A DNA stretch of 64,000 bases from positions 32,001-96,000 of the IMG/VR virus record IMGVR_UViG_3300021255_003843; one strand, given 5' to 3'. The position numbers and the translations under genes are program-made. The notes under the pieces are model-generated. The model worked only from the letters and a program-made list of their open reading frames with translations, was not told where the DNA came from and did no database searches. The stretch comes from a virus. Lineage: Duplodnaviria; Caudoviricetes. Positions 13,926 to 60,893 of the stretch are shown here, piece after piece. Positions within the stretch are counted from its first letter, which is position 1; every line of letters starts with the position of its first letter.

Positions 13926-13952
13926 CATATATATCCATTCTCGAGTGTAATC
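13926..13952 (-). promoter_or_regulatory. 27-bp conserved motif, copy 1 (candidate phage-RNAP late promoter)
   Basis: CATATATATCCATTCTCGAGTGTAATC, near-identical at 45602 and 53301; just upstream of Dit and downstream of a strong hairpin. Confidence 0.6.
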
Positions 13953-29000: not shown

Positions 29001-30410
29001 GCCGTGCATATTCTGAGCAATATACCTCTTGCCGCTCGGACCAATAGGCACAGCCTTGCCACTCAGCAACTCTTCAATAAAAGCCTGCTGTTTCGGATCA
29101 TTTCGATCATAACCATCAGCGCTGACAAAGATGACCTTGTCAGTAAAATCATTATGATGGCCTTCAAGGCCGAGCATTCTCGTGTTCTGCGATTCACTGA
29201 GCATGACGCGAGAACTTTTTCCGGTATTATTAAACAGATCGCCGACAGTGTATTTAGCAATCTCATATTGCTCAAGCATATGCTTTGTAGATCTACCGAG
29301 CTTCTCAAAACCTCTGCCAAGAGATCCCGCGTCAGACCAATCTTTGTCAGAACCAATGCCGTCAATGTCACTCATGATGCTAAGCAGACGGCCGGCAGAA
29401 GAAGAGGTCATGCGGCTTACAAGCTGGCGTGCCTCTTTGCTCGTCATATCTTCTAAGCCTTTGAAAATATCAACACGCTGGCTATCTCTGCCAGAAGCTC
29501 GCTTCACGAAAGACGTGAACAGGTTACGCCTGAAATCATCAAGCATCTGCGGAGTGATTTCTCTAATCAGAGACAGTTCACCATTGTCCTCAAGTTTCGT
29601 CATGCCTTTGACGCCGTAAGCAGCTCTCGCGGCTTCATCATTGTCTCTGATTAAATCTCTGAGCTGCGTTCGATTGTAGGCAGACAGGATGCGAGAACCA
29701 CTCGGCATTGCCATAGAAGTATAGCCTTTATTCTTATAACTCTCCCTGAAACTTGCAGGAAGCAGGTCTACAGGCTGAGCAGTGGTGTTATTATTCCTGA
29801 GAATATGCCCATACCTTGCGCGCTGATATTCTGCGGTGTTAAAAGCAGGAAGAACGTTCGGGATCAGAGCTTCAACATATTTCTGATAGACATCGCTGCG
29901 AGTAATGCCGCCATGTCCCTTAGACATAAAGAACTCTTCAAAGGGTTTACTCTTCACGAACTCTCCGGCGGCCGTCTTAGCTGTCAAGCCAGCTAAGCGT
30001 GACGCCTGAGCTTTCAGCATAGAGGACAACTCGCCGGTTTCAGCGCTCAACTGCTGTCTGATCGTTTGCGAAAATCCATCAACAATGGATTTCGCAAACG
30101 ACGCTCCGAAAGCACCGTCCTGCCCAAACAGAGAGCTCATAGTCCCAAGCTCTTTCAAACCACTCTGCACATCTTGTACAAAATCCTGGTCATCGGTTCT
30201 ATTATTTAAGCGCGCCTTCGAGATTTTTTCTTGCAGCATATCTACGATCGAACTTGCGCGCTCAAGGCCTTCGTTTAATGCGCCCGTCATACTCGGCGCG
30301 TCTTCAAACGAGGTGCGAAGTTCGTTAAACTCTTGCTTAAAGTTCCGTAGTTGGCCTACAGCTTTATCAAGGTCTAACACTTCTACACTCAAAGATAGTT
30401 TGTCAGACAA
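14049..30410 (-). CDS. Giant tape measure protein (5453 aa) with N-terminal two-barrel RNA polymerase-like domain
   Basis: TMP core (FDSQM...LYRQG...ALGDSAATT...GTAMQTIFSRM, ~23.7-24.5 kb); C-terminal coiled coil and FDSGG..DFTG.AWVDGT..KPEAFL; upstream of Dit. N-terminal RNAP motifs D573-G, R591/K597-G, R860-S-P, D906-L-D-G-D910. Confidence 0.9.
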   Translation of the reverse strand: MSDKLSLSVEVLDLDKAVGQLRNFKQEFNELRTSFEDAPSMTGALNEGLERASSIVDMLQEKISKARLNNRTDDQDFVQDVQSGLKELGTMSSLFGQDGAFGASFAKSIVDGFSQTIRQQLSAETGELSSMLKAQASRLAGLTAKTAAGEFVKSKPFEEFFMSKGHGGITRSDVYQKYVEALIPNVLPAFNTAEYQRARYGHILRNNNTTAQPVDLLPASFRESYKNKGYTSMAMPSGSRILSAYNRTQLRDLIRDNDEAARAAYGVKGMTKLEDNGELSLIREITPQMLDDFRRNLFTSFVKRASGRDSQRVDIFKGLEDMTSKEARQLVSRMTSSSAGRLLSIMSDIDGIGSDKDWSDAGSLGRGFEKLGRSTKHMLEQYEIAKYTVGDLFNNTGKSSRVMLSESQNTRMLGLEGHHNDFTDKVIFVSADGYDRNDPKQQAFIEELLSGKAVPIGPSGKRYIAQNMHGTGTHAGVRMIEQQAYEAVMKREQEWAQKHGFVTADGKGANFWNDFVDSAYEFKDIESLRKHFDATGKGWSNSWDTHGNFKNRNFAVVDLSQINDENVKQKLADGIGWFMDGILPEKDFQGRMGVAGKGTFHQISGYKTVGEWAKAAGLTDANGRFILPGVGGNIDLTDYHGFVDASTIKNMQAYSNFHTPEEISKGFTAMLQHYGMSSMSTYDDAETRAKGIGTQAMAFMNLSPKMRQQQIDEFDRRINLLSSEAGIREYLFADPDNYLGKQIRSGKLNVNSSAVQSWVQNEIESLTERMSSGEWIDFGTNPSVINQTINKSPLASILGLETINGLSRSDLLKRIRQQYQEKTGTALTISDEDLEGVFALNKGQLVDFARPDAKKVAVQRSPSLFGNFVVGKNYANLARDIYKVFGQTTSGLFASEADLATLGSADLDGDKAKTIYGDLAEAFAEVVAIQEKAIQDFEGSTEPIIKKVDMPAEAAKNVDNPLHRRLFFQTSQDVTNEMGAADASARRAAMFDIYAPENKDLLAAAIQSTPTYDQATAGLKHATSTEATPQMKKALYAGAQWSKLPSRFSRLFNVTGRDNMDVPSPEDIYTATVNGHEIPINMKELRDLGFDKINFRSIFNTTDVGTMRAVSQVASKGVNMERTYALLQALEHMGYGGAGETTQALMKNLRTMKAYDIANPMAPMSAEELDDMQAMIIASKREIEEEAYQKAQGGMIKMEDGSEVSFDSYVQKKMNEYGITAAQGFIERGINQPNISSVFRTDDPAKLLPELFLGQKGGLDFTFTGKDTVLQREAVEKKLQENQAELQRIEIETKQHEEQMNQIKSTLPQEDQARYSPDMTKEEAIEASKRIYAVDGDLAKAEAEAAQVARVYDEVDQLAAGSGIDMQAYRDITAQRQRILDENAQLGKAYTYIQAQEHANTLRSSVDSVKQQFLSGLLKKENELEGKSQAETYYGSRAANVGFVYRQLEDFIKNGEEFDQLPPAMKQEFKELVGGRKDLMQQMNQDFADTTELKAKRLYENLDKTNRKRANKVSALDVQFEEYNNQLQAVEDYRNELQKHLQDREKYPFSPAERKLYEERLAETDTYLAGAREETGKMKEADITNLLDKIKGTVIKDPFQQLKQGANEAKEVVSQLSERLEKVYKDQGMSDEEVAKKMEPYSVLTQQIDENTMFQQQHLKLQDRARVAQVLSTYMADVDKYDIDKEKSFLDFREEQARINRKKQKTGFITEDEAKIVNTTFEDYKRKYDEQNIDVSRYLEGVEAVRDKAQKNVDNARKIADRIRKSDLTQEQKDERLKPLERFNDDYVKREEAAYNERIRQRQKQAELRGEQEIMQAKRAEMQVEQMNRNWQSRTAIDPLSRTYLQRQNMYDQYRSQYNYNDMMVKRMEEQQLAAKNAIDNAATDEDRNLAQAQYDSATASLDHYREALESTKEAMKEFGDTAGNFKTIGNMLAAGLETAATAADKLLQSFGRKMIRQAFTEAKNFVVQFDSQMRGIQAITMKTDEQMQAVKKATVDRAIELKTSVANVASVESDLYRQGLNDQQVEDRTGAIIKFATVTGAKVTDAGKAITTAIQNGLVNSAEEAMDALTALGDSAATTANEIFKGMQKSAAAAKVAGVSYEELTSMLTIGISKTQMSGQVIGTAMQTIFSRMNRVTNQGYVNDETGASVSINDVEKALSGAGIQLRESGGKSFRNSFDVLRDLSKVWGSLNDIQRNNITYTMAGGRQTNVFQTLMEGMGEDGGAELDRLLGLAENSEGTTDSKYAIAVKSITAAMEELKATYDGLVSSMSSNQFFVSSVDMVTGFVGGLKDLTSVAGPVSTAAVVIGGALAALATKLLIVNAASNTFKGAAGLVSTLASVVAIAGVLGVAGAIGSARKNFVDQNDPTLKAQQQIKLADSYSKNRKEGLQPLQKQIDEVQKYGEAWEKAKGNMSASDQQAFIGSLNDLAGTLDGVKKGFESAEEAGKNWKIFVTQGQDHIDKLQRDIDEDTIDMKYAAYEAAYKPDKLRDAYNASQHSVEHKNVGTSLNEKYLVNWASGTLPSDIADATSAITFDYADIMPDSIYDIDLSSEKAYEEFYQKALFSMLGIDVNDPKLNDKFKIYLNTDDGVSFLKKLGNETRARFSENVFTSITHLNPEHQKEFLNSFRNYLIGSKGQGIQKLYTDAYQQQREEEVDTFIGQILGDTDSLTGGDEEARKYLKDQLLKDTAQVLPEDLPDALHESLQRYLNTYKAPQQFQDAAKKANNKYKYFYTDENGKQLFGFDDLDKAEEAYRNYKQSIIQKTSDIIELNYDDFDINRIKTSAGLNAYRNLDQFVNDYSLNDKEYTDVYKNVLSYAMQASSYQDMADMISNVEKQIPNLTGVMTNDAEFAKMIKDLKVGTGKYTLDQFRDYLQGKVLQSSLTDYTASILSGNMSYGQELAAYNAINAGTASADQYDLIAKQWGVNRTNFDANRGLYMTLENSRLNKAREESAHGFNVYMQDLLGGFVKSMDEEEWNKLRKENKGLDFTDRIMELYANSITDESTRQEFQQFTQAAKSAGYRTTIGQDKQFSTTYTGQGYVEENPLAANGNNFYTSRQLRSVASNIVNFDLNADEAKKKYGEYLNEIKSAYPELYEWINTTDAARKKELETEIKIKFKSEGIEEVLKAGTLIKDLVELADQFSRNGIQKHEAQTTFNTELETMRNQAIAGQFANRLASGTIAWANIPSQYQELIKAGSSTYAGKSDKDFFGNEAAAAREYVAYLNSSDYRQALVNTYGSAIHAGLMTQAQAEQLGLTNGKGFQENWFNSVNYNRPNAAFDINQASMATTEEQAQKLVLKAAAQLNSGNFNVQLTEDELAAITSVYGSDVANAITTLNSSKITADRNNALDILKTAWLRLQERSGQVSDGLTNMVIQALSEGHGSAQTTSREALRDKMVQNINDVYDRVVAYNTISQYLNNGTELDAIDENLFSLIGINKNDFINADVTHRNITMTGASTDLNARLLQAQNDAAYSYDYLGAQYGTPILDAAMNKLGLNARYSDYSGAYGLFDRKTLSDLSGLTYENRSLYNPYKAMQSENSQYELANKLYGLISSNQFATPQAFGKYIENNLTPTEQAIWQNNSGSGILSNVYTMSGLIGNREADEYQLAEAEYRKAYNTRNLNRLQALSRITSDQAGWITGLYGTDDEIKTATEGINNWVSTIQQMSDIQEKSYDFAEAQSFIESMKSFSGFDKEVTADNWDDLKLSVGEELIRQNQYLPAFISLLNAANSDVGSDVMSGLGLSFDENGNLVGKNGESLLQGLWYDNWKNLYNTSGVFSNASNRAMIKDVLDNNMSLQQAGEKYLGQLGQSSELLRYLQLIEKQNNGETVDQKELDDLKKKAQESFTDNPFVGYTPQMTTAKTLEEISKLMEAGDGAKDMFAGLEDGIQSQLKSFPGLFDYLATYGSDSEAAAKAAKTLADAIRNEVIGALEEEGKVLSGLSNQLTTIANGNIIDSISQMNQLGQQITNLDEVQQAYKRLTSGQGIQRPEDWNTIKNAFNIGDNVIAQYQSGERSLANDYGYAMEEVEKLRNTTVSTAVDQILVDQLGDAAYETKQPEGFLERIKVMLGMSKPGRTQKSTSDMITGMTDAQVAEVNQRLRASQLGEIVRGENGQWQMQYGGKADAQLTWAQQLARALDTRAALGQGDQSTDYQAMLNSFELSNGNLGDFRSYVDLVQRTNGYKTTAATDLLSNTDFLAAIERGDVDAIRAMLLNGAYGITAPNATRMTTSGVSEYITAALNGDKAKLEELRKNNPTMLDYLTNNVQGFNEAYSAVMSGQQLEKYQIDALKAGSAYQTVYERERNGELKAGSAELAQRLADIDRTKGPTREERRLISAEGSELQRTSQAAQIAQTMYDNQANLTETDWEYLQTKAQLTDEEIKEYKKTPEKLKDLAKDLKGDQQKIRDSLEAAIVGAFPELSSLSDLAKDGNQKIRELVEQLLDMSGLQLTEKDGQITGISEITDNRTAYEILTQGAAANVEPEKEAETYKNRLARLAMQSSDQESLIAAINSDAELLDYLKKDEGARMLGSGFDEIFYNSEHGWTYDQMRNALIQGTGYAPLYRDQLFNNNMEIARQQFGEGFGTSSSLNLNTEQLATVQSYIASHEDFAQWLSDIEGGADLLYAIGNATEDFTYDMTALNGEFSARKIEQYNKFNKASKDIASGVRALSGDIKDSNAYMKSFRQGINAIANNQYYREKYKKGDRSNDVLSAIAQGTGLDKKDLRKGGTPVQQAIKDWETEDKQAIDNYLNTAGTMLTEGLQGTFNEKLQNLGLDGSQIQLLVDKGQVTVDLSQLANEATGAAQAQIQEIMATLSRMGMQATGVVTSDGSNIKLQFQTTDLGKGRSGGGGGGGGGGKSAAQKLLERLKREQALLNHEIKMIQYQETKYENASEIGNQNRMIELENDAQKRLIATLEKHIETTKKQMARTKKNSDDWKSLYDSVLAYEEAIEEANIAIQENTKKIEENEQAILKLHTDLETEVDTEINNRIQRERDMLAGTVSMQDAIIEAIRARYRAEWALIEKDIEKKRAALEEEKNLIDERLQRRKDAEDEAEKYEELSEYKKQLALIEMDSTRTKDAAKLREQIAKIEKEIAWDVAEDEADYQKEQIDSQLQAYDDFVNYGGEDLEAWLEDANNLADEVNQVMQMSQEGMLDWLKANVEEYGLAMDAAQKQMIQGWIDTYEQMIGYTHTYWEEIADILSGKDLFLNYMMASQDYINASEDEQKQMLYDWGEMYDNWIAAQKRDAVYSHSDNGLSGIGTNGSSKKSGSGSGSGNNANTTTDADRINVQDNNGAYVDNSRALHYDTASSGTDKIGSTSKVAQTISATANKLADNVKKLFGFDSGGLVDFTGPAWVDGTKAKPEAFLSADDTALIRSFLDEAKVVRYRSTISNIDSNSFSGNSQNIGELVINITEAQFKDDADFDEVAQRVGQKFVKELSKQGFNTMSYSF

Positions 30411-40961: not shown

Positions 40962-42545
40962 TTAACCATCGTCCATGCTGCCTTCGGGGTTCGATGGCTT
41001 AGGTTGTTTGCCGCGCTCAGAAGCGTCGGGGTCCGAGTTGCGTTCTTCGTCCGTCATCTCTGGACGTCCGCCATCGCTATCGTTCGCAGACGTTTGACCA
41101 GCTAAAGCCCGAGGCTGCATTGTTTCGTCAGTACCATCGGCACTCTCTTTGGCACGCTGAGCCTTCTCTTTTTCAAGAGAATAGCCCTGGGTTTCCATCA
41201 TTGTCTTAGTAGATACTAAGCCTTGCGTCCAAAGTTCCTTGCAGACATCGCGAAGCGCTTTGCGGCCATCCATGTCAAGCGGCATAAACTTAAACGAAGG
41301 AACTTGGTTGACGTTATACTTATGCGTTATCGCAAGCTCTTCCTGAATGCAGACATTGATTTTATTCATTAATTCACAGATCTCGTCGCGGGCCGCATCA
41401 ATTCGCATAGATGCAGTTTGCATAGATACCTGCGCCGAAGCGAAAGTGCTGCCGTCTTCGGAAACACCGTTGACGATAATACCGCTGATACCTCCAGCAG
41501 ACAGGATGTCTTTATTGACATCACGATACTTGTCAAATTGGAAGAGGTCATCAAGCTTAGGCTGTATGACGTTTGCTTCCGCGAGCTGGTTAGTAACAGC
41601 GAGCGGAAACTTAGACATCGCGTTGGAAAAGACGTTGCGTACGTCTTTGAGTTCGGTAATATCAGGCAGTATGTCCCGTCCCTTTTGTTTGTCGCCGTAA
41701 GTAACATGAACGAACGAACGGATGCCTAAGTTAAGAATAGCGTTCTCATATTTAGAGATAAGCTCTTTCTTAGCTAAAGCCGGCAAGCATGCCGCAATAA
41801 AAGGAATAGCGTAACGCATCCATCCTTCTTTCGGGCACTGAAGCACCTTCGTATACTTAGGATTCAACTGTGCGTACTGCGCGCCTTTGTTTAAAGCCTC
41901 GAAGACTTCGTCGGGATAGCCGGCGAAATACTGCTGGAGGTTATTGTCTTTGATCCAGTTTTCTCTGACGGTGTAGCTCTTCTGCCGCCACTCATTCAGA
42001 ATTGTCTGGCAATCAAAGTCAACGATCGGTTCGCCATTCAACATCGTGTTGCCGATCTTACAAAGATGGACCGGCAAAGTGATAGGCACACCATGGAAGA
42101 TATAAACAAATACGTTAGAGTATTTCCAATACTCGACAGCGATGCTTTCAAGCTTTTCGCGCAGACGGATCTGTTTATAAAACTCTTCGTATATTTTATT
42201 AGTCTTGTCGTTTGTACCGACAAGGTTCCATGGCGAGCCGATAGTGTACGGCACATAGACATGACGCACGATCCCGCGAACGACGGGATCAGCGTCACAG
42301 TAGTAATCGGAAAGTTTATAGAGGTTAACGATGTTTCTCTGCTTGTCTCTTAATATGGCATCGTAATCGTAACCAACTAGGTTGCCATTAAAAGTAATAT
42401 TGGAATTTGAGAACGATTGATAATCGGTGCGGTCTTCGTCATCTTTAGCGCCGGTCACCGTCTTACCTTTTCTGTCGTTAGCCGGAAGCTGATTCGCCGC
42501 AGCTTCTGCAGGCTTCTGCCTTCTGAAAAGATCAAGGAATCCCAT
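40962..42545 (-). CDS. Portal protein
   Basis: Directly after terminase; ~530 aa; C-terminal GGRP motif; GGAGG RBS before MGFLD. Confidence 0.85.
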   Translation of the reverse strand: MGFLDLFRRQKPAEAAANQLPANDRKGKTVTGAKDDEDRTDYQSFSNSNITFNGNLVGYDYDAILRDKQRNIVNLYKLSDYYCDADPVVRGIVRHVYVPYTIGSPWNLVGTNDKTNKIYEEFYKQIRLREKLESIAVEYWKYSNVFVYIFHGVPITLPVHLCKIGNTMLNGEPIVDFDCQTILNEWRQKSYTVRENWIKDNNLQQYFAGYPDEVFEALNKGAQYAQLNPKYTKVLQCPKEGWMRYAIPFIAACLPALAKKELISKYENAILNLGIRSFVHVTYGDKQKGRDILPDITELKDVRNVFSNAMSKFPLAVTNQLAEANVIQPKLDDLFQFDKYRDVNKDILSAGGISGIIVNGVSEDGSTFASAQVSMQTASMRIDAARDEICELMNKINVCIQEELAITHKYNVNQVPSFKFMPLDMDGRKALRDVCKELWTQGLVSTKTMMETQGYSLEKEKAQRAKESADGTDETMQPRALAGQTSANDSDGGRPEMTDEERNSDPDASERGKQPKPSNPEGSMDDG

Positions 42546-42563
42546 AGGCGATCCAACCTCCAT

Positions 42564-44219
42564 TTAGAAATAAGTGGCAATGCCTACACAAGGCTTGCCT
42601 CTCTGATATTTTTTTATATTATCTTTCTCAAGCTCGCTGATGTAATCATTTCCCATTGCTAAGCTTGAGTATCGGTCTTTATGCATTGAGTTGCGCGGCG
42701 TGTCGTATAAAACGTTACCGCTCGCACCAACCTTGCTGACAATATTGCCCATCTCAAATTGCAAAGCATCGGCCTCGTGAAATATAGCCTTCTCCTCCAT
42801 CCGCATTTGCTGCGAAGGATCCTCGAGCTCAGCCTCAGAGGCTTTAATAATCCGAGAGTCAACAGGCAACTCGATTGTACGTTTCTCTAATGCGACGCGC
42901 AGGTTTGTGTAAATACGCTGGTTCAGCGTCTGCACTGCCCTAAAAGGATGTAGCACAGGTAAAGCCGCCGCGTTCATGTTAGGAGAATCGTCGACGACGA
43001 GAGGCGGGTATTCCTTCCCGCTCACGGAGTCGACCCATTCCTTATCAAAGAAACGGTCGAGACTGTCGCCAAGACCTCTGGCGTCGTAGATGATCTTCTC
43101 GGTATTCGGAAACTTAACATGGTAAAGCTGTCGTAGCTCCTCAGCTAACACGTCTAAGGTTTTGCCGTGGAAGCTTCGTATTAGCACAACCTTCTTGGCA
43201 TAGCTACCGTCGGCTCGCTCAGTAAACTTAATCACTGTGATGATCGAGTTGTCTGCGTCCTTTGCCTCGGAGGTCGCGATATCCAATGAGATAACGTATC
43301 TTGACTTGCTATTCTTAGGTTGTTCAAGCTCAATCTTCTTAAGCGTCCTGCAGCTTTGTGTCAACTCATAAGGGAAGGCTGAGTTATTTTCAGAGCCTAA
43401 GAATTTACATCCGTACTCCATCTGGAAGATGATATCAGGCATGCGAGCTTTCTCGCCCTCAAAGAATTGCGCATCGTTGATGCCATCCGCGATAGCGGTC
43501 TTATAGTCAAGCGCGCAGGCGAACTGCGTTCGGTCGCCCTTCGCCATGCGCTTTACAGTCTCTAAGAAGTTTGAGTAATACTGGTTATTCTTAGCGCACG
43601 CACTCGTAATCGTTACGGTTTTAGATTGAAAATCCTTGAACCCAAATGTTCTTGCATTATACCGTATCTCGTTTCTTGTCGGGGCTACAATCGCCTCAAG
43701 CTTGTCCTGGTCGACATCAAGCGCCTCATCAACAATGACGAGCTTCGCACGTTGGCCGCGAACACTCTCTAGTGCAAGGCTCCGCAGTACGCTGCCATTT
43801 TTCAGCGTACACTGCGAGCCGTTCTTGGAAATCTGAATCAAAGATCTCGCATTCGTCGCGTTGATCTCATTTGCGATATTCGGATTCTGGTCAGCGATCG
43901 ACTTGAGCGTCGTCAGGACTAAGGTAGCCTGAGCCGCCGTCGCCGATACAATCAGTATCTTCGAACCTGGATAAAGGACGCCAACGGCGAATCCAGCGAG
44001 CGCGGCTACGAAAGTTTTGCCGTAGCCGCGCGAGCATGTGTCGTTACTATTGACACAGTTGCCAATCTGTCTAATTAAGACGTGTTGCGTAGGAGAAAGC
44101 TTCACAGGCGCACACGCGTCTTCTATAAAGATGTCTAAGTGTTTGCGGTAGAAGATAATCTGCTCCTCTGCCGCGTCCCAATTTGTGATGACGCCAGGCC
44201 TCACTACTGCCACAGACAC
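42564..44219 (-). CDS. terL: Terminase large subunit
   Basis: Walker A SRGYGKT, RGQRA, Walker B VIVDEA, ITSA, nuclease ISLDIA...D, KDRYSS. Confidence 0.92.
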   Translation of the reverse strand: MSVAVVRPGVITNWDAAEEQIIFYRKHLDIFIEDACAPVKLSPTQHVLIRQIGNCVNSNDTCSRGYGKTFVAALAGFAVGVLYPGSKILIVSATAAQATLVLTTLKSIADQNPNIANEINATNARSLIQISKNGSQCTLKNGSVLRSLALESVRGQRAKLVIVDEALDVDQDKLEAIVAPTRNEIRYNARTFGFKDFQSKTVTITSACAKNNQYYSNFLETVKRMAKGDRTQFACALDYKTAIADGINDAQFFEGEKARMPDIIFQMEYGCKFLGSENNSAFPYELTQSCRTLKKIELEQPKNSKSRYVISLDIATSEAKDADNSIITVIKFTERADGSYAKKVVLIRSFHGKTLDVLAEELRQLYHVKFPNTEKIIYDARGLGDSLDRFFDKEWVDSVSGKEYPPLVVDDSPNMNAAALPVLHPFRAVQTLNQRIYTNLRVALEKRTIELPVDSRIIKASEAELEDPSQQMRMEEKAIFHEADALQFEMGNIVSKVGASGNVLYDTPRNSMHKDRYSSLAMGNDYISELEKDNIKKYQRGKPCVGIATYF

Positions 44220-44226
44220 TCACTCC

Positions 44227-45126
44227 TTATACAGTGTCGAGACCCAACGACTCAACAAGATAATTGAACGAATCGATCACACGATCGACATCGTCCTTCG
44301 GCCATTTGATTTCTCTCGTACACGGGTGTCCCGTCGATTCAAGTTTAGCCGTCAGCTCTGACCAAGAGCTAAGCCCGGCCGTATCGCCGGGCTTGCGCTT
44401 GCAGGCCGCAAAGTTACCTGACTTACTTAGCAGATCGAACTGCGATATCGCGTCTTTAACAACTGAATAATCGCAGCGCCCAGCCATGAAGTCATCTTGT
44501 GCTTTATCAGCTTGAAGGCTTGCTTTAGCAAGTTTGCGGGCAATATCGCGCAGGTTCGTATCACTAAGATCGAAGTCTTCTTCGAGGCCGCTGTAGTATT
44601 CCTCAAGGTATTCAAGCTCACTCTTCTTGAAGTACCCATTGAATTTATGGCTATAGGTTTTAACATCGGGATCCGCTTCTTCTACTACCTGGCCGTTCGC
44701 TTTCGCTTCGGCATAAGATAGGGTCTTACCGTCTTCACCGTTCTCAACGTATTGGTAGTAGACGCCCATTACTGCAGGAACCTGCTGACAGGTGAGCCGC
44801 GTAAGAATGACCTTGCGGCGATCGTCATTAGCCTTCTGGTACGTCGGATTATTTGAGGCAAGCTTCTCTGCTTTTTCTTCAGCCTTCTGCCATATGCGCT
44901 CGTTCCACTCTCTATGGTTCTCCCAGAAGTATTCACGCATTTCGTCTTTAGACGCGCAGCGGTTGACACAATCTTTGCACCATATGTCCTTACCAAGCTG
45001 CTCGTCCCAATCACGGTTGACGTAGTAATCGGCAATCGGTTTAACGCGGCCGCACTTCAAACAGAGCTTCGTCTGTGGCGGTCGGATAATACGCTTTGGC
45101 TTAGACTCGGTTACGACATCAGGCAT
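44227..45126 (-). CDS. Zn-finger protein upstream of terL (candidate terminase small subunit)
   Basis: CLKC...WCKDC; immediately before terL. Confidence 0.55.
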   Translation of the reverse strand: MPDVVTESKPKRIIRPPQTKLCLKCGRVKPIADYYVNRDWDEQLGKDIWCKDCVNRCASKDEMREYFWENHREWNERIWQKAEEKAEKLASNNPTYQKANDDRRKVILTRLTCQQVPAVMGVYYQYVENGEDGKTLSYAEAKANGQVVEEADPDVKTYSHKFNGYFKKSELEYLEEYYSGLEEDFDLSDTNLRDIARKLAKASLQADKAQDDFMAGRCDYSVVKDAISQFDLLSKSGNFAACKRKPGDTAGLSSWSELTAKLESTGHPCTREIKWPKDDVDRVIDSFNYLVESLGLDTV

Positions 45127-45511
45127 AAATGCGTACCTTCCTTATTGGCGCTCCGTGTTCAACGAGAGCGTCAATAAGCTCTTCGCTCTCCTTCGTCTTC
45201 GGGAGTTCCTCGCTTGTTGCGACGGCACTCTCAAGCTTTGCCCACTCCTTCTCTGCTTCTATGTTCGCGTAGTACGCAACAAGGAGTTTGAATAAAGCCG
45301 CCGTCTTCTTATACTTGTAGGTCTTGATGCCGTACTCGTCCTCCCGGATAAAAGTAGGCTGGATCCCATGTTCGTTTAAGTAGATATACTCACGTTTCGT
45401 CTGCGTTGAGTATTCCATATCAAAAGCCCTCTTGGGAGGGTTGAGCTTATGGATAGCAGGATGCTCGGACGTCTCTGCTACAAACGTACAATCATCGCGA
45501 TCATATTTCAT
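45119..45511 (-). CDS. Hypothetical protein, first gene of the late operon
   Basis: GAGGTG RBS; overlaps the next gene. Confidence 0.7.
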   Translation of the reverse strand: MKYDRDDCTFVAETSEHPAIHKLNPPKRAFDMEYSTQTKREYIYLNEHGIQPTFIREDEYGIKTYKYKKTAALFKLLVAYYANIEAEKEWAKLESAVATSEELPKTKESEELIDALVEHGAPIRKVRIYA

Positions 45512-45601
45512 AAATGAATCACCTCAAAAAAGTTAATCAAAATAAGAGACGCTTAACAAAAGTGCGTCTCTTTTTTAGAGACGTTGGAGCACGTCTCTCT
45601 C

Positions 45602-45628
45602 CATATATATCAATTCTCGAATGTAATC
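45602..45628 (-). promoter_or_regulatory. 27-bp conserved motif, copy 2 (candidate late promoter)
   Basis: CATATATATCAATTCTCGAATGTAATC about 90 bp upstream of the structural operon. Confidence 0.6.
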
Positions 45629-45837
45629 ACAAAAATGGGATGGAAAATGGGAGTAGGAAAAGATCATATCCCCCGTGAGTTTCTTGATGAAAACTTTTTC
45701 AGCGTAAACCCCACCCCCGTAAAAAGTTTTCACTGAAACCAATGAACCCCTGGCGATATGGCGGCCGATCCGCATGAGGAAAACGCTGCCAAATAAAAAA
45801 AGCGACCTGCTGGAACAGGCCGCAAAGGAGGATTCTT

Positions 45838-46041
45838 ATGAAAAAGTACACTCTATCTGTCCGTAGCACCGCAACTCGCAGAGAAGACCCTGTTTACGAC
45901 AACAATCTTTCGAAGATGAACATGGCTGCAACCATTTTCACCGTCAGAAAGGTGCCGCAGGTCGTCATTTTCGACAATGAGGAAGAAGAAATCATTTTCC
46001 TCGCCGAGAATGGAACCGTTAAGGTGGATCATCTGCCTTAA
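45838..46041 (+). CDS. Hypothetical early protein
   Basis: AAAGGAGG RBS. Confidence 0.7.
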   Translation: MKKYTLSVRSTATRREDPVYDNNLSKMNMAATIFTVRKVPQVVIFDNEEEEIIFLAENGTVKVDHLP

Positions 46042-46163
46042 AAATCCTCCCGCCCTTGATCTTAGCACAGACTTGTGCGCAGGTCAAGGGCACTTTTCTG
46101 CCAATTAGCGGATGCGTAAATCCGCTGATGATATATCAACAAAACAAAACAGGAGGAAGAACA

Positions 46164-46502
46164 ATGTTTAACATCAATAACATGTCCCGTAGCTACGATG
46201 CCAACTCAACCGTCTCAAAGAAACACAACAATCCTATTCCTAATTGGCTTCATGCCAAGTTTCTTCTCTGGGGTTATGATCCAATAACCGACGACGAATA
46301 TCTGTTAGGAGAAACAACTGATAAACGCATCGCTCGAAGCTGGGTTAAGGAAATAAAGCGCGATCACTACACTCGAATTGTTGTTGAATTTCCTGGATCC
46401 TATTGCACTACAGCACATGAGCTGCGCTGGTGCGACGCTAAAGCAAATCCTGAAACAGTTTATTTCACTCTAAACGATAAGAGTGAAGAGATTCCATTTT
46501 AA
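46164..46502 (+). CDS. Hypothetical early protein (ends SEEIPF)
   Basis: A-rich leader + AGGAGG, ATG at 46164. Confidence 0.75.
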   Translation: MFNINNMSRSYDANSTVSKKHNNPIPNWLHAKFLLWGYDPITDDEYLLGETTDKRIARSWVKEIKRDHYTRIVVEFPGSYCTTAHELRWCDAKANPETVYFTLNDKSEEIPF

Positions 46503-46512
46503 GGAGGAACCC

Positions 46513-46662
46513 ATGATCATTATTATTCTCATCGCTGTTGCAATCTTTTTGATTTCCATTAACGATATCCTCGACGCCGTTGACGAGATGCGCTGGCAGT
46601 TCAACATGCTGCCAGCGCGTTTCTGGAAACAGAACTATAAAACGCATCGGCGTTTTTATTGA
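46513..46662 (+). CDS. 49-aa membrane protein
   Basis: AAGGAGG RBS; MIIIILIAVAIFLISINDIL...; stop overlaps the hammerhead stem. Confidence 0.65.
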   Translation: MIIIILIAVAIFLISINDILDAVDEMRWQFNMLPARFWKQNYKTHRRFY

Positions 46663-46728
46663 CCCGTCTGATGAGAGCTGGATAGCAACCAGCCGAAACG
46701 CGCTTTGGCGCGTCACGGGAAGCCAATA
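46657..46728 (+). ncRNA. Type I hammerhead ribozyme
   Basis: P1 CCCGU/ACGGG (+UAUUG/CAAUA), CUGAUGA, P2 G-GCUGG/CCAGC-C, GAAA, P3 CGCGC/GCGCG, GUC cleavage after 46714. Confidence 0.92.
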
Positions 46729-46751
46729 CCCGTTGCGGTTTCATTCTCCGC

Positions 46752-46782
46752 AAAACAAAACCCCGGTGCACGAACACCGGGG
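46752..46782 (-). terminator. Terminator for antisense transcript
   Basis: CCCCGGTG-TTCGTG-CACCGGGG-TTTTGTTTT on the minus strand. Confidence 0.75.
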
Positions 46783-46811
46783 CCTGGCGTCCACGAAAGG
46801 AGGTGATTCCT

Positions 46812-46967
46812 GTGGACACCGTAGCTCTGACAGCAGAGCAATGTGTATGGTTTCTGACCATCACAGCGCCATATCGCAGAACTCTGCTGAAGAAGCTGTC
46901 CACCGGCGAGTATGTGCTCGTATGGGATGCGGCAACGCATGAGTACATACTGACAAAGGTGGATTAA
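46812..46967 (+). CDS. 51-aa small protein covered by a predicted antisense RNA
   Basis: AAAGGAGGTGA RBS, GTG start; MDTVALTAEQCVWFLTITAPYRR... Confidence 0.65.
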   Translation: MDTVALTAEQCVWFLTITAPYRRTLLKKLSTGEYVLVWDAATHEYILTKVD

Positions 46968-47003
46968 CAGCTCACCGAGAAGGTTCACGCCCTTCTCGGT
47001 TTC

Positions 47004-47032
47004 AGTTTACCAGACACGTGAAGCCGTGTCAA
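47004..47032 (-). promoter_or_regulatory. sigmaA-type promoter (antisense)
   Basis: TTGACA-17-TAAACT with extended TG. Confidence 0.7.
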
Positions 47033-47477
47033 GATGTTAACGATTTGTTAAGTTGGATTCATAAAGAATTCCATCTTTTCATTTCGTTTTCAAAAACCCT
47101 CGCCATCGGCAAATGATCCTGATAACACATCAGATTTGTTTGTCGATGCTTCCTGTGGTATCGGACAAGCTGGCCCTTTACAGCTTGTCCGTTTTGATAT
47201 ATGCTGGTTAAGAAATTGACGCTTAACCACTTCGCTAATGTCAATTATCGTAACTTGGCTGGCGAGCCTTGTACGCGGAAGGAGGAAAATGGAAAAGGCT
47301 CCTGCCATCAACAGGAGCCATAGGAGGAAGGGATGTGAGTATCATCAACCTTCATCAGCATTATAGCATAATCACAGCTGTAATGCAAGCACATCGTGCG
47401 GCGATTAAGCATAGGCCTAGCCGTGGCAAGCGGTAAACTAACAGCAACTCAACAAACAAAAATTAGGAGGAAAAACC

Positions 47478-49988
47478 ATGAGTATCATTAATTTAGTGAA
47501 ATCCAACACCCTGTCTGTCGAAGAAACCAACGGAACCGGTGTCACTTTGAACACCGAAAACCATGCGTTCGGTCTGACTCCCGCGTTCACTCGCTTCTCC
47601 CCCGATTACTTCCAGATCATCGACACTGGAGATATGGATCGCGGAGAAATCCCCGCAGTTCAGAACTATCTCGACAACATCATCGACAACGGCATCCAGG
47701 ATGGAAGCCGTCGCTACATCCCGGTTTTCGCCGGTTCCAGCAACCAGCGCAATGGTCAGTTTGTAATGTGCTGGGACAAAATCTGGAACGACGTTACATC
47801 CTGGTGCTGTGCCGGTCTCGATTGCAGGAAATTGCCTGTAGGCAAGCTCGCCAAATACATGGCACTCATGTTCTCAACCGTTCGTTCCTGGGATGCTGTG
47901 TTTCCCGATGGTGGACTCTATGGGGTGTTCAAGTACCCACATCCCAGCACCTGGGGCGTGTTCCCTGACGTTGACATTGACGCTGTTGGCCTGTTCAATA
48001 AGGTCACTCCGTGGGCTGTAAACAAAGAACTGGTCCTCGGTTCTGACAAAGAGACCAACAAGATCACTGATGGTATCGCTCTGTTCGTTCTGGACGATAC
48101 TCAGCTCAACTCTCATCAGAAGAAAGAGATCATCAAGAAAGCAGAAGCTTTCACCGTCAGAGCTCCCATGGTCAAAGGTCTCTTCGTTCCTGTTCTCAAA
48201 TCCGCATTGATCAAGTGGTTCGAAGATCATCCCGAAGCGTCGTCTATTCAGAAGGACGCTTGGGGCAACGAACAGAACCTGCTCGACCTCCAGGTCATCA
48301 CCTTCAAGTCTGTCTTCAAAGCTTGGAAGTGCATCAAGCAGTGGTCCGAGTACGTTGAAGGCTTCGATACCTACGAGCACCATGTGTGGGTCTGCATCGC
48401 GGCGCACGGGGAGCGTTGGGCTTCCCTGCCGTATCAGCAGCTCCAAACCCTCAACGCCAACAATGCGCAGGTCGAGGAGCTCGCGCGCACCAGCGCGAGC
48501 TTCCTCATCGACAATGCCAAGATCGGTAAGCTTGGCAAGATCATCGGAGGAAACCTTGGCAAGATCGTCGACATCTTCCCGGATATGCTGCATGATCCCT
48601 TCGTCCGTGAGCAGCTGCAGCGGAAGTGGATTAGCCGCTGCAAGCAGATGTATGGCGGCCGCATCCTGCATGTCAGCCATAATCTGTTCTGCTCCAGCGA
48701 CATCATTGCCGTTATTGAAGGGTTGACTGGTCAGTCCGTTCATGGCGTGCTGCCTGCCAATACCGTGCACACTCAGGCCTTTGGTTACGACAGGAAGCTG
48801 GGCTGCACTCGCTGCCCGCATCTCGACAACGCGTGGGTCACTCCGCGCAACATCAAGGTTCCTGAGGAATATCTTGGCCTGTACATGGGCACCACAATCT
48901 TCTACAGCTGCAATGACAACACCATGAAGGTTCATCAGATGGACTTTGACGGTGATCACAGCAACGTTACCGACAATCCACTGCTCATCAAGCTGGCTGA
49001 GTACAGCCATGCCAGCTATGGCGATTCCTGCCTGCTGTACGCGGCCATGGACGATGGCACCGCGCCGAAGACGACGTCTGATTATAAGACTGAGTTCAAC
49101 GAGCTGTGCCGCAACAGCTTCAAGGCTCCGATCGGCCTGTACGCCAACACCCTGACCAAGGTTTGGGCTCTGCGTAACATGATGGAAAAGACCAGCGCTC
49201 AGGCTAAGAACCTGTGGGTGTGGATCGCCTGCCTGACCAGGAAGGGCAACACCTGCATTGATGAAGCTGGCGGACATGGCAAAGACAGCTCCGTCGGCAT
49301 CGCGGAAGACGTGGTCGAACGGTTCCGTCGGACAAAGAAGCCATGGTTCCATGGTTATGCCAAGGGCACGATCAATCCTCAGGGTCAGATCGTCCGCGCT
49401 GACGCCGACTACAAGTACGAGTTCAAGCCGTTCCACACTGTCGACGTCTATAGCGCCATCTGCCGGATGCTTGTGCCGACAGAGGCTGAAACAGTGATCG
49501 ATCTGTCCGCTTATTCCATTATTTACTCCAAAGAAGTAGCGGCCAGGATCGTTCGTACCCTTATGAAGGATTCCAATGTCCGCACCCGTCGTGCGGCCAT
49601 GAAGGATCTTTCTGATACCTTCGCCGATCTCGTCTGCGCAGCCAACCATGAAGAAGTGCTGATCGCTCAGAGCAGCAGCCTGGCCGCTGTGCCGAACTTC
49701 ACCATGGATAAGGTCGATCTGATCCGCGCCAAGTGCGAGCAGATCGCTCTGAACTGCGGCTACACGCTGGACGACGCTGTCGACATTCTGGTCTTCAATC
49801 TGTTCTACAAGACCAGCGCGACCAGTGCGAAAACCTCCATGATGAAGCGCTGGTTCTTCATCGCCTTCGGTGACATCGTGTTCGAAAACGCGCAGCGCAA
49901 CCTGTCCGTTGAACTCACGACCACCGACAACTACGAAGACGCCTCCGAGGAGGAGGATGACGACGCGATCGATCAGTTGGAAGACTGA
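47478..49988 (+). CDS. Single-subunit two-barrel (YonO-like) DNA-dependent RNA polymerase
   Basis: 836 aa; TDG(198), R....KG, YQ.LQTL, RCP, catalytic D489-F-D-G-D493. Confidence 0.88.
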   Translation: MSIINLVKSNTLSVEETNGTGVTLNTENHAFGLTPAFTRFSPDYFQIIDTGDMDRGEIPAVQNYLDNIIDNGIQDGSRRYIPVFAGSSNQRNGQFVMCWDKIWNDVTSWCCAGLDCRKLPVGKLAKYMALMFSTVRSWDAVFPDGGLYGVFKYPHPSTWGVFPDVDIDAVGLFNKVTPWAVNKELVLGSDKETNKITDGIALFVLDDTQLNSHQKKEIIKKAEAFTVRAPMVKGLFVPVLKSALIKWFEDHPEASSIQKDAWGNEQNLLDLQVITFKSVFKAWKCIKQWSEYVEGFDTYEHHVWVCIAAHGERWASLPYQQLQTLNANNAQVEELARTSASFLIDNAKIGKLGKIIGGNLGKIVDIFPDMLHDPFVREQLQRKWISRCKQMYGGRILHVSHNLFCSSDIIAVIEGLTGQSVHGVLPANTVHTQAFGYDRKLGCTRCPHLDNAWVTPRNIKVPEEYLGLYMGTTIFYSCNDNTMKVHQMDFDGDHSNVTDNPLLIKLAEYSHASYGDSCLLYAAMDDGTAPKTTSDYKTEFNELCRNSFKAPIGLYANTLTKVWALRNMMEKTSAQAKNLWVWIACLTRKGNTCIDEAGGHGKDSSVGIAEDVVERFRRTKKPWFHGYAKGTINPQGQIVRADADYKYEFKPFHTVDVYSAICRMLVPTEAETVIDLSAYSIIYSKEVAARIVRTLMKDSNVRTRRAAMKDLSDTFADLVCAANHEEVLIAQSSSLAAVPNFTMDKVDLIRAKCEQIALNCGYTLDDAVDILVFNLFYKTSATSAKTSMMKRWFFIAFGDIVFENAQRNLSVELTTTDNYEDASEEEDDDAIDQLED

Positions 49989-50096
49989 TCGTCGCGTCGC
50001 TCAGGCGTCACGCTCCGTCGCGCAAAGAGCGGCCATGCTGTGGCAAGCGGCAATTCTCTGTAATAATAAAAAACAAAAAAATGGGAGGAAAACACA

Positions 50097-51203: not shown

Positions 51204-51234
51204 GCGCGCTGAGGACAGCGCGCGCCATGGTGAT
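51204..51234 (+). promoter_or_regulatory. AGGA-loop hairpin motif, copy 1
   Basis: GCGCGCTG-AGGA-CAGCGCGC-GCCATGGTGAT. Confidence 0.7.
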
Positions 51235-52207: not shown

Positions 52208-52238
52208 GCGCGGCGAGGACGCCGCGCGCCATGGTGAT
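52208..52238 (+). promoter_or_regulatory. AGGA-loop hairpin motif, copy 2
   Basis: GCGCGGCG-AGGA-CGCCGCGC-GCCATGGTGAT. Confidence 0.7.
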
Positions 52239-52273: not shown

Positions 52274-52612
52274 ATGAGTATGTATCAGTATAAGGTTCAG
52301 ATGATCAACCACAATATGCCGTCCAGGCATTATACGCTGCAGCACAGGCTGAACACCTGGCTCGAGGCTACCGGCACGACCAAGGCAGAACTCTCCCGTG
52401 CCTGCCAGGCCTACGCTTCTCACTATCGCATGAACTTCTCTAAGACGAACATCGCTCATTATTCTGCAGGACGCTGCTGCCCGAAGACGGACACTCTCGC
52501 GATCCTGAGCCATGTCATGGGAGTCTCTGAGCAGTGGCTCACTGGCTACGGTCCGGAATCTCTGCGTGTCACCAGAACTCTGGTATCTACGACACGCTAC
52601 ACCAGGGTATGA
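52274..52612 (+). CDS. XRE-family helix-turn-helix regulator
   Basis: RL...T.AELSR...SKTNI.HY..G...PK.DTL..LS....VSEQWLTG. Confidence 0.85.
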   Translation: MSMYQYKVQMINHNMPSRHYTLQHRLNTWLEATGTTKAELSRACQAYASHYRMNFSKTNIAHYSAGRCCPKTDTLAILSHVMGVSEQWLTGYGPESLRVTRTLVSTTRYTRV

Positions 52613-53205
52613 CACAGATGAGAGCGTGCTGAAATATGCACGCTCTCTTTTTTCAGAATCCTGGATGAAACTCAGGCTATTCTGTACAGAAGGGTCGCGA
52701 TCACTGAACGATCGGGGGACAAGCTATATAATAAATACGATGTCCCCGGATGCACGAGCTCCACTGGTAGAAAAACACCATAATGCACGAAACATTTTGG
52801 TTAGGGAGCAATGACGTGGAATAGTTGGGAATGTAAGTGAAATCAGGGGAAATGATAGGGGAGAGAACAGTTCTTTTCCTGTTTTTCCTATTTTCTATTC
52901 CTTTTTCATGCTCAATGACCACAGCAGTGCTCCTTAATACCCCACTTTTCTATATAAGCACCAATTGTAGTTTTCTACACTGATAGAGACGGCCGTGTGT
53001 TCACGCTTCGTGAATACCCGTTGCGTATCGCTACACTGGTAGATACACACATTCCGTCTCTAACGATAGACCCATAGGGTTCCTACTAACAACATCTAAG
53101 CGCTCCCTTTCCTCCACGCCTTTTGGATAGGCGGGGAAAGGGAGCTTATTCATGACCGTGCTTCTCTCATATTCGTTTCTAAACAACACATATGTATCTA
53201 ACATT

Positions 53206-53248
53206 ACGAAAAGGGGAGGGCTGCTGGCGCAGCCCTCCCCTTTTCGTG
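53206..53248. terminator. Bidirectional terminator hairpin
   Basis: ACGAAAAGGGGAGGGCTGC-TGGC-GCAGCCCTCCCCTTTTCGT. Confidence 0.75.
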
Positions 53249-53300
53249 TAAATCAACGTTTTTCGTTTGCATATTCGAAGGTCCGCTTCGCGTCCCTTCT

Positions 53301-53327
53301 CATATATATCCATTCTCGAATGTAATC
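53301..53327 (-). promoter_or_regulatory. 27-bp conserved motif, copy 3
   Basis: CATATATATCCATTCTCGAATGTAATC in a non-coding region. Confidence 0.55.
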
Positions 53328-53425
53328 GCACCTACATACTTTATCTGATATAGTACATCGACAGATGATGTATATATATCTGGTTGAATTTTTAACCAGA
53401 TTATCCTGGACATACCTCGCCTTAA

Positions 53426-53456
53426 CCGCGCTGAGGACAGCGCGGGCCATGATGGA
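53426..53456 (+). promoter_or_regulatory. AGGA-loop hairpin motif, copy 3
   Basis: CCGCGCTG-AGGA-CAGCGCGG-GCCATGATGGA. Confidence 0.7.
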
Positions 53457-53471
53457 ACTTACGGGGACTCC

Positions 53472-53500
53472 ATTATACTGTCGCCGTGAAACCCTGTCAA
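53472..53500 (-). promoter_or_regulatory. Consensus sigmaA promoter on the minus strand
   Basis: TTGACA-17-TATAAT, perfect match. Confidence 0.8.
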
Positions 53501-53861: not shown

Positions 53862-53892
53862 GCGGCCTGAGGACAGGCCGCGCCAGGATGAA
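53862..53892 (+). promoter_or_regulatory. AGGA-loop hairpin motif, copy 4
   Basis: GCGGCCTG-AGGA-CAGGCCGC-GCCAGGATGAA. Confidence 0.7.
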
Positions 53893-54175: not shown

Positions 54176-54206
54176 GCGGCCTGAGGACAGGCCGCGCCAG
54201 GGTGAA
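54176..54206 (+). promoter_or_regulatory. AGGA-loop hairpin motif, copy 5
   Basis: GCGGCCTG-AGGA-CAGGCCGC-GCCAGGGTGAA. Confidence 0.7.
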
Positions 54207-57917: not shown

Positions 57918-57990
57918 GGCCTCTTAGCTCAGCCGGTAGAGCAGCTGACTGTTAATCAGCCGGTCGCGCGTTCAAATCGCGCAGAGGCCT
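57918..57990 (+). tRNA. tRNA-Asn(GUU)
   Basis: Acceptor GGCCTCT/AGAGGCC, D arm GCTC/GAGC, anticodon arm GCTGA-CT GTT AA-TCAGC, T loop TTCAAAT; no encoded CCA. Confidence 0.92.
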
Positions 57991-58454: not shown

Positions 58455-58528
58455 GGGGATTTAGCTCATCAGGTCAGAGCAGCGCTCTTATAAAGCGCAG
58501 GTGCATGGTTCAAGTCCATGAATCCCTA
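58455..58528 (+). tRNA. tRNA-Ile(UAU)
   Basis: GGGGATT/AATCCCT acceptor, GCGCT-CT TAT AA-AGCGC anticodon arm, CATGG-TTCAAGT-CCATG T arm, A73. Confidence 0.9.
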
Positions 58529-58601: not shown

Positions 58602-58673
58602 AGGGGAGTAGCCAAACGGAAAGGCACGGGACTTTGACTCCCGCATGTGAAGGTTCAACTCCTTCCTCCCCTG
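58602..58673 (+). tRNA. tRNA-Gln(UUG)
   Basis: AGGGGAG/CTCCCCT acceptor, CGGGA-CT TTG AC-TCCCG, GAAGG-TTCAACT-CCTTC, G73. Confidence 0.92.
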
Positions 58674-60287: not shown

Positions 60288-60893
60288 ATGATTTCTATCA
60301 CCCTGCTCACCAATGCTGGCCGTCAGACTACTCCCGTGTCCGAAGATACCTCTATCCGCGAAGTGCTGGATTCCAAGCACATCAACTATGCCGCCTCCGT
60401 CGTTCAGCTGGATGGCTGCGCGCTGCGCCCCGGCGACATGGATAAGACCTTCGCCGAAATGGGCATCAAAGACAGCTGCTATCTGACAGCCGTCGTTAAG
60501 GCGGATAATGCTGCCAAGGTCACCGTGGTTGGCGAAGCCGCCGTTGTCACCTCCGCGCTGAAGCTGGCAGACATCAAGACCGCCAAGAAGTATCGCCCGG
60601 AAGCCTTGGAGCTGAAGAAGGACAAGGATGTCATCTTCGCTGTTGACACCACTGATCGTTCCGCCGGCTCCATCAATATCCACGGCGCAACCTTCTCCAA
60701 CGCCACGGACGCTGATGGCTATGCCACCATCACCATGACCGTGGATCGCGGCGAGGATGTTGAGAAGACTCTGCTCGATAAGATCGGCATGGGCCTGCTG
60801 CTGTTGAATCAGGTCGAGGAAGCCTTCGGCGAACAGCTGGCGTCCATCCAGGCTGATCAGGCGAAGATCAAGTCTCTGATCGACATCAAGTAA
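60288..60893 (+). CDS. Ubiquitin-like (beta-grasp) domain (aa 1-75, ending KADNA) fused to a ~126-aa C-terminal domain
   Basis: Ubl-like pattern: I.ITL...TSIREVL...V.LDG..L...DMDKTFAEMGI...CYL..VVK; first gene of the E2/JAB/E1 operon. Confidence 0.75.
   Translation: MISITLLTNAGRQTTPVSEDTSIREVLDSKHINYAASVVQLDGCALRPGDMDKTFAEMGIKDSCYLTAVVKADNAAKVTVVGEAAVVTSALKLADIKTAKKYRPEALELKKDKDVIFAVDTTDRSAGSINIHGATFSNATDADGYATITMTVDRGEDVEKTLLDKIGMGLLLLNQVEEAFGEQLASIQADQAKIKSLIDIK

Follow-up and report, generated by a model that had tools for sequence, protein, structure and literature searches.

The promoters of phages T7, T3 and SP6 are about 23-27 bp long, nearly invariant, directional and present in few copies per genome, with an A+T-rich stretch before the start. 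In T7 the start itself is purine-rich (GGGAGA); the transcripts carry a 5' stem-loop, and the upstream bases of the promoter are phage-specific (T7, T3 and SP6 each have their own). A 5'-terminal stem-loop is a known mRNA-stabilising device.

The YonO polymerase of phage SPbeta transcribes the late operon of this phage (PMC5467207). The promoter P(YonO) lies a short distance past the polymerase gene; it controls the structural and lysis operon and is first read into a non-coding RNA (Forrest et al. 2017, PMC5467207). One YonO start was mapped upstream of yonK (168 coordinate 2225998), the promoter sequence being left to be determined; how YonO-type polymerases find their promoters, and whether they do so unaided, was also left open in 2017 (PMC5467207). 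Our search of a literature library found no later paper giving the sequence of a YonO-type promoter.

Phage P23-45 encodes two RNA polymerases, a virion enzyme that is part of the tape measure protein and a two-barrel enzyme that stands alone, and a separate DNA motif belongs to each (Chaban et al. 2024, PMC10770324). An A+T-rich and strongly conserved motif serves the virion enzyme at the pre-early genes, and the late genes use the host polymerase (PMC10770324).

This report concerns a 27-bp repeat in a gut phage with polymerases of the two-barrel type. The window, i.e., the whole stretch of DNA that was analysed, comprises 64,000 bases (32001-96000) of a virus record of 105,495 bp, which is referred to as G000. 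Coordinates are those of the window unless the record is named. G000 encodes an integrase; therefore, the phage is temperate.

Results

Three two-barrel RNA polymerases are encoded in G000, two of them as stand-alone proteins. P0002 (836 aa; 47478-49988, plus strand) contains the catalytic DFDGD within the sequence MDFDGDH and has many relatives, including a 61%-identical one on a 114-kb contig. P0115 (947 aa; phrog_8308) is encoded outside the window, at 97324-100167 of G000 on the plus strand (L050:1324-4167), and is the phage's nearest orthologue of YonO. It is 35% identical to SPbeta YonO over 83% of the length, whereas P0002 is 24% identical; the corresponding matches to the YonO PHROG have E values of 1.5e-174 and 4e-58. 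P0002 and P0115 are 24% identical to each other.

The third enzyme is an RNA-polymerase-like domain in the N-terminal part of the tape measure protein (residues about 390-1260; 26630-29240, minus strand), which is 5453 aa long and encoded at 14049-30410 on the minus strand. The DLDGD of this domain is invariant in 29 giant tape measures, and dozens of publicly available tape measures, 3700-6800 aa long, carry the same module at their head. In a profile-profile comparison based on the 29-sequence alignment, the domain matched both stand-alone polymerase families with a probability of 95-97%; the single-sequence profile comparison of the tape-measure N-terminus with the P0002 family was weak (probability 0.3). 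The domain is about equally far from P0002 and P0115 and so gives no hint for the assignment of promoter classes. The sequence search of solved structures with P0002 and the tape-measure N-terminus gave no match, and no relatives of P0002 were found in prokaryotic reference genomes.

Two further observations concern the polymerase genes. A below-threshold Pfam match to vRNAP_dom_2 (PF21867, E 0.002) is present at residues about 3574-3632 of the tape measure (window about 19690-19515). In a relative, contig G002 (28361-31833, minus strand), the P0115 orthologue is split in its catalytic motif (QFD/VDGD) by an insert of about 720 bp, which carries a 184-aa ORF in another frame and is intron-like in look; over-long matches also occur in L076 and L077.

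The original prediction listed three copies of the motif in the same orientation. All three were found as exact matches of CATATATATCMATTCTCGARTGTAATC on the plus strand (13926-13952, 45602-45628 and 53301-53327), and 100 shuffles contained no match; a fourth exact copy was added outside the window, at 101364-101390 of G000. In the direction of the genes (the minus strand for the copies in the window) the motif reads GATTACAYTCGAGAATKGATATATATG, 27 bases, and is followed by a purine run, as had been noticed for each of the three; the purine-rich start is GAGAAGG or GGAGAG. With 0-1 mismatches allowed, G000 has four copies, and no other site in the genome comes closer than 9 mismatches. All words of at least 13 bases that occur at least three times in G000 belong to the motif, except one chance three-copy coding word.

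Copy 1 (13926-13952, minus strand) has on one side the hairpin that follows the tape-measure gene and on the other the gene of the distal tail protein, Dit (12815-13906, minus strand; phrog_33, E 4e-12), which is the first gene after it. The final G of this copy is 20 nt ahead of the Dit start codon, and the ribosome-binding site AAGGAGG comes directly after the motif. Copy 2 (45602-45628, minus strand) is ahead of the structural operon, about 90 nt from its first gene; the start of the operon (40962-45511, minus strand) includes a 130-aa gene, an HNH-like gene, the large terminase gene (42564-44219) and the portal gene (40962-42563). The original prediction placed two copies where late promoters are expected, and this is what copies 1 and 2 exhibit. 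Copy 3 (53301-53327, minus strand) is within the early region and is directed into about 650 nt without a credible ORF. Copy 4 has the opposite orientation (plus strand) and is directed at its own downstream genes: it starts at the stop codon of the gene for a Sak-like annealing protein and is followed by genes for SSB, primase-helicase and exonuclease; past the contig ends these are followed by a DNA polymerase fragment, thymidylate synthase, NrdD, RuvC, RNA ligase, dUTPase and endolysin. In G000, each of the four copies is upstream of, and co-oriented with, a transcription unit, and the same holds for all four copies in G001/G002 and in G005, the relatives described below. The term "late promoter" thus fits copies 1 and 2, which precede structural genes, but not copy 4, which precedes replication and nucleotide genes, nor copy 3 with its ORF-free stretch.

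Copy 3 has particular surroundings. A perfect (12/12) sigma-A-type promoter, TTGACA-17-TATAAT (53472-53500, minus strand), lies 145 nt upstream of it in the same direction and is kept in the relative G005; a strong G+C hairpin with T runs on both strands (53213-53245, sequence read directly) lies 55 nt downstream. The stretch 52650-53500 read on the minus strand consists of this promoter, copy 3, the terminator-like hairpin and then a hairpin-rich ORF-free part, which heads toward the 3' end of a plus-strand gene (52274-52612). The hairpin stems of the stretch vary between relatives yet still pair, and the ORF-free stretch is probably a non-coding RNA. The early region also contains three tRNA genes on the plus strand (57918-57990, 58455-58528 and 58602-58673), besides which Rfam gave nothing over the window. 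About half of the phage genes are without annotation.

One IMG/VR phage, split over the contigs G001 and G002, encodes polymerases that share 75-76% identity with those of G000; the YonO-type polymerase of G005, a complete 111-kb phage, is 75% identical to P0115. Each of these two phages has exactly four copies of the motif, at the same four junctions as in G000, i.e., upstream of Dit, of the first structural gene, of SSB and of the ORF-free stretch, although the flanks diverged. The upstream bases are uniform within a phage: GATTA in G000, GTACG in G001/G002 and GTCGA in G005. One position of the box is phage-specific as well, with TCAAGAAT in all four copies of G005 versus TCGAGAAT in G000 and G001/G002. 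Such concerted variants suggest that each phage encodes its own reader of the motif.

More distant members of the family share the terminase, portal, Dit and the Sak-SSB pair with G000. Among them, all three polymerases of G003 (IMGVR_UViG_3300029305_007380) and G007 are remote from those of G000, as are the two stand-alone enzymes of G006. Here the motif takes the forms GTACGCATTCGAAAAACAACGTAATG followed by GAAAG (G003), TTCACCTTTCGAGAATCGCCTATATG followed by GAGA (G006) and GACATTCGAAAAAAACGATAATG followed by GGGAG (G007); its 15-nt upstream half is identical in G001 and G003. The alignment of 18 sites gives a common core, which includes the TTCGARAA box, (T/A)ATG 19-20 nt after the box start, and the purine run; the core is retained in G003, G006-G008 and contigs L009, L014, L017, L024 and L075. 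The sequence model built from this alignment revealed more copies in L009, L014, L017, L024, L070, L072, L073 and L075, and no match among about 70 SPbeta-type YonO loci. A regular-expression scan of 80 YonO-type loci gave 18 non-coding matches, which is about the rough chance expectation (no enrichment), and blastn of window positions 45000-50000 against phage records gave no match. The search in relatives, proposed originally as a check, thus found the motif at the same junctions in G001/G002 and G005 and in a recognisable form in farther phages.

In G003, the P0115-type gene and the majority of replication and structural genes contain TAG codons in frame, but neither TAA nor TGA; no such TAG is present in the P0002-type gene or in seven further early-region orthologues. 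It looks like TAG recoding in this phage is confined to the later genes. The TAGs in the P0115-type gene would place P0115 in the later translation class.

The 40 nt from the final G of the motif were folded for 23 sites, and the start of the folded segment was also slid to other offsets. The first paired base of the hairpin coincides with the final G in 12 of the 23 sites; the numbers are 10/23 at offset -1 (the T before the final G), 12/23 at 0, 8/23 at +5, and 0-4 elsewhere, the secondary value at +5 corresponding to the inner helix. The 5' end of the predicted copy-2 transcript (45565-45602, minus strand) consists of the purine-rich start and two hairpins (-13.9 kcal/mol, z -4.2), and the last G of the motif is the first paired base. 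The predicted copy-3 transcript has a hairpin at its 5' end as well (53277-53299, minus strand; z -3.3). The stems vary in sequence between orthologous sites; e.g., before SSB, G000 has GGGAACGUUCCC and G002 has GAGAAGAG...CUCUUCUC. The 5' hairpin is absent at the Dit copies and at some others. We infer that the transcript starts at or next to the final G, with which the hairpin register fits.

Discussion

We believe that a single-chain two-barrel RNA polymerase of the YonO type, encoded by the phage, rather than the host sigma-A holoenzyme, uses the motif as its promoter for middle and late genes; as judged from the genomes, the probability of this reading is about 0.75. It is based on the orientation of the copies, their synteny, their conservation against diverged flanks, the concerted variants, the hairpin register, and the absence of both sigma-A features and dyad symmetry. 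As to the sigma-A features, the original statement that the motif is not a sigma-A consensus holds: there is no pair of -35 and -10 hexamers with a 16-18 bp spacer at the motif, and none of the promoter-like sites listed by a sigma-70-type scan coincides with any of the copies.

The following mechanism is proposed. The upstream part, with about five phage-specific bases and the conserved TTCGARAA box at about -19 to -12, would provide specificity; the A+T-rich stretch ending in (T/A)ATG would ease melting; and the RNA would begin with the final G or its neighbour and have a purine-rich 5' end, which often can fold as a terminal stem-loop. Together, the four copies would turn on all that lies outside the early region: copy 4, the replication and nucleotide-metabolism module; copy 2, the packaging, head and tail operon; copy 1, the distal tail genes; and copy 3, a non-coding transcript. 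The role of copy 3 is uncertain because of the strong terminator-like hairpin at 55 nt and the perfect sigma-A promoter upstream. There is a somewhat less than even chance that the motif represents the first promoter consensus for YonO-family polymerases, a bipartite TTCGARAA / (T/A)ATG with a G start, in a temperate family with a three-polymerase cascade, two unlike promoter classes (hairpin early, linear middle/late) and upstream bases tuned for each enzyme.

Alternatively, the motif could be a promoter of the host RNA polymerase that needs an unrecognised sigma-like factor or activator of the phage, in the manner of T4 gp55 or P2 Ogr. The A+T-rich TATATAT stretch could be used as a -10-like element, the unannotated half of the genes leaves room for a very divergent factor, and in the Thermus phage P23-45 the late genes are read by the modified host polymerase despite its two own polymerases (PMC10770324). 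We consider this improbable. Neither Sigma70_r2 nor Sigma70_r4_2 domains were found in six frames of G000, while both families were found in control genomes; the TATAAT-like part is not kept in G003 or G007 (ACAACGTAATG and AAACGATAATG, respectively); the hairpins begin at the final G, and a start 6-7 nt past a -10 element would land inside the stem; furthermore, three phage polymerases would have to share only one candidate promoter class.

Even less probable, in our opinion, is that the motif is not a promoter and represents a binding site of a repressor or another protein, or else an RNA processing or stability signal. Copy 3 does lie downstream of the sigma-A promoter, which is a possible place for an operator, and CATTC-GA-GAATG (sequence read directly) is a short imperfect dyad; cleavage just ahead of a stable hairpin would equally account for the hairpin register. 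However, the dyad is broken without compensation in copy 1 (CACTC) and copy 2 (GAATT), the motif is strictly directional relative to genes, and copies 1, 2 and 4 have no nearby sigma-A promoter to regulate; phage-specific concerted variants are not expected of a host RNase site. In addition, a separate, truly palindromic repeat class exists near the integrase and early genes and fits the operator role; the original prediction had itself named repressor operators as the alternative, and the asymmetry of the motif together with its dyad-breaking variants speaks against it.

This palindrome, CAGATAAnTTATCTG, occurs in the window at about 47117, 51066, 51145, 53340 and 57550, and in G000 also at about 8872, 22815, 22895, 24789 and 24830; its copies are concentrated ahead of the integrase gene and within the early region. 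These sites look like repressor operators and are a better candidate for them than the motif. In G003, paired palindromes TCTCTATAWWWTATAGAGA are present at two intergenic sites (about 60700-60800 and 91745-91850); a purine run and the start of a gene come after each.

If the motif is a promoter for a phage polymerase, one can ask which of the three reads it. The evidence is divided between P0115 and P0002; we would name P0115 first, although tentatively and by a small margin. Its orthologues are 52-56% identical among the lineages that keep the box, compared to 21-28% for the orthologues of P0002; a motif copy is found about 1.2 kb downstream of the P0115-type gene in G000, G001/G002, G003 and G005; this layout of P0115 and copy 4 resembles that of P(YonO) after yonO in SPbeta. 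The known role of YonO at late genes was also counted for P0115. P0002 as the reader is rather doubtful, and that both enzymes read the motif is unlikely. The tape-measure-fused polymerase is a highly improbable reader; it seems unlikely that a virion enzyme would read promoters of structural genes.

The original prediction assigned the motif to the "YonO-like" product of the gene at 47478, i.e., P0002. A promoter for a phage polymerase is supported, but this particular enzyme is not established, and the true YonO orthologue is P0115 (by the identities of 35% vs 24%). The specific version, a late promoter read by P0002, is possible but doubtful, and deserves consideration for several reasons. 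P0002 belongs to the two-barrel polymerases and carries the catalytic DFDGD; its gene is divergent beside the structural-operon copy, and this arrangement recurs in L009, L014, L017 and L024 and holds for every lineage where it is visible. The P0002 gene is never downstream of any motif copy. The motif is directly upstream of the P0115-type gene in four lineages (G006, G007, G008 and L075), as in a simple cascade, so that P0115 as the reader would have to activate itself. In the TAG-recoded G003, the P0115-type gene has 6 in-frame TAGs and the P0002-type gene has none. On the other hand, identity among P0002 orthologues reaches only 21-28% for lineages sharing TTCGARAA, although the 15-nt upstream half is the same in G001 and G003; the motif is not confined to late genes; and under a scheme with P0002 only, no promoter class would be identified for the YonO orthologue, which is the best conserved of the enzymes. 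Another class of repeats, the hairpin with GCCAKGRTG, begins just after the P0002 gene and needs a reader too.

The latter class, AGGA followed after 8-10 nt by GCCAKGRTG, has five copies, all on the plus strand (51212-51232, 52216-52236, 53434-53454, 53870-53890 and 54184-54204), and is found nowhere else in G000. It forms a second promoter-like class, which could be P0002's own.

Concerning SPbeta itself, the published primer-extension primers bracket SPBc2 positions of about 60357-60574 (PMC5467207). The 25-nt repeat TCGRMTAATRKTCATTTATGARGGT has only two copies in SPbeta, at 60433-60457 and 60590-60614 of SPBc2 NC_001884 (minus strand); one is within the bracketed stretch and the other is just upstream. 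This repeat may be a lead for the P(YonO) sequence; its slight resemblance to our motif does not exceed chance. A similarity by eye of the 3' half of our motif to TCATTTATGARGG in SPbeta and AATATTTATGGAG in the Psychrobacillus phage Perkons was dropped: local alignment of the motif with the yonN-yonK spacer gave p 0.2-0.96 versus shuffles, and the scan of YonO-type loci showed no enrichment.

A defined 27-bp candidate (TTCGAGAA box and final ATG), with natural variants in seven or more phage lineages and two candidate readers, brings the question of promoter recognition by these enzymes within reach of in vitro tests. Should the enzyme alone suffice for the motif to work, this would be a compact orthogonal polymerase-promoter pair unrelated to T7. 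The motif also helps to map the expression programme of a widespread family of three-polymerase phages of the gut or rumen.

Comparison with known systems

The motif is similar to the T7, T3 and SP6 promoters in its length, invariance, direction, A+T-rich stretch, purine start, 5' stem-loop and phage-specific upstream bases. Unlike T7, the polymerases of G000 are of the two-barrel YonO/QDE-1 type, which is unrelated to the T7 family; the motif has no sequence similarity to T7 promoters, and the start is derived here from sequence. The combination of tape-measure-fused and stand-alone polymerases is common to G000 and P23-45; however, the motif of G000 precedes replication, structural and tail genes rather than pre-early genes at the first-entering end, and G000 has a third polymerase and is temperate. 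The layout is like that of P(YonO) of SPbeta: copy 4 comes after the P0115 gene, and copy 3 likewise leads into an ORF-free stretch.
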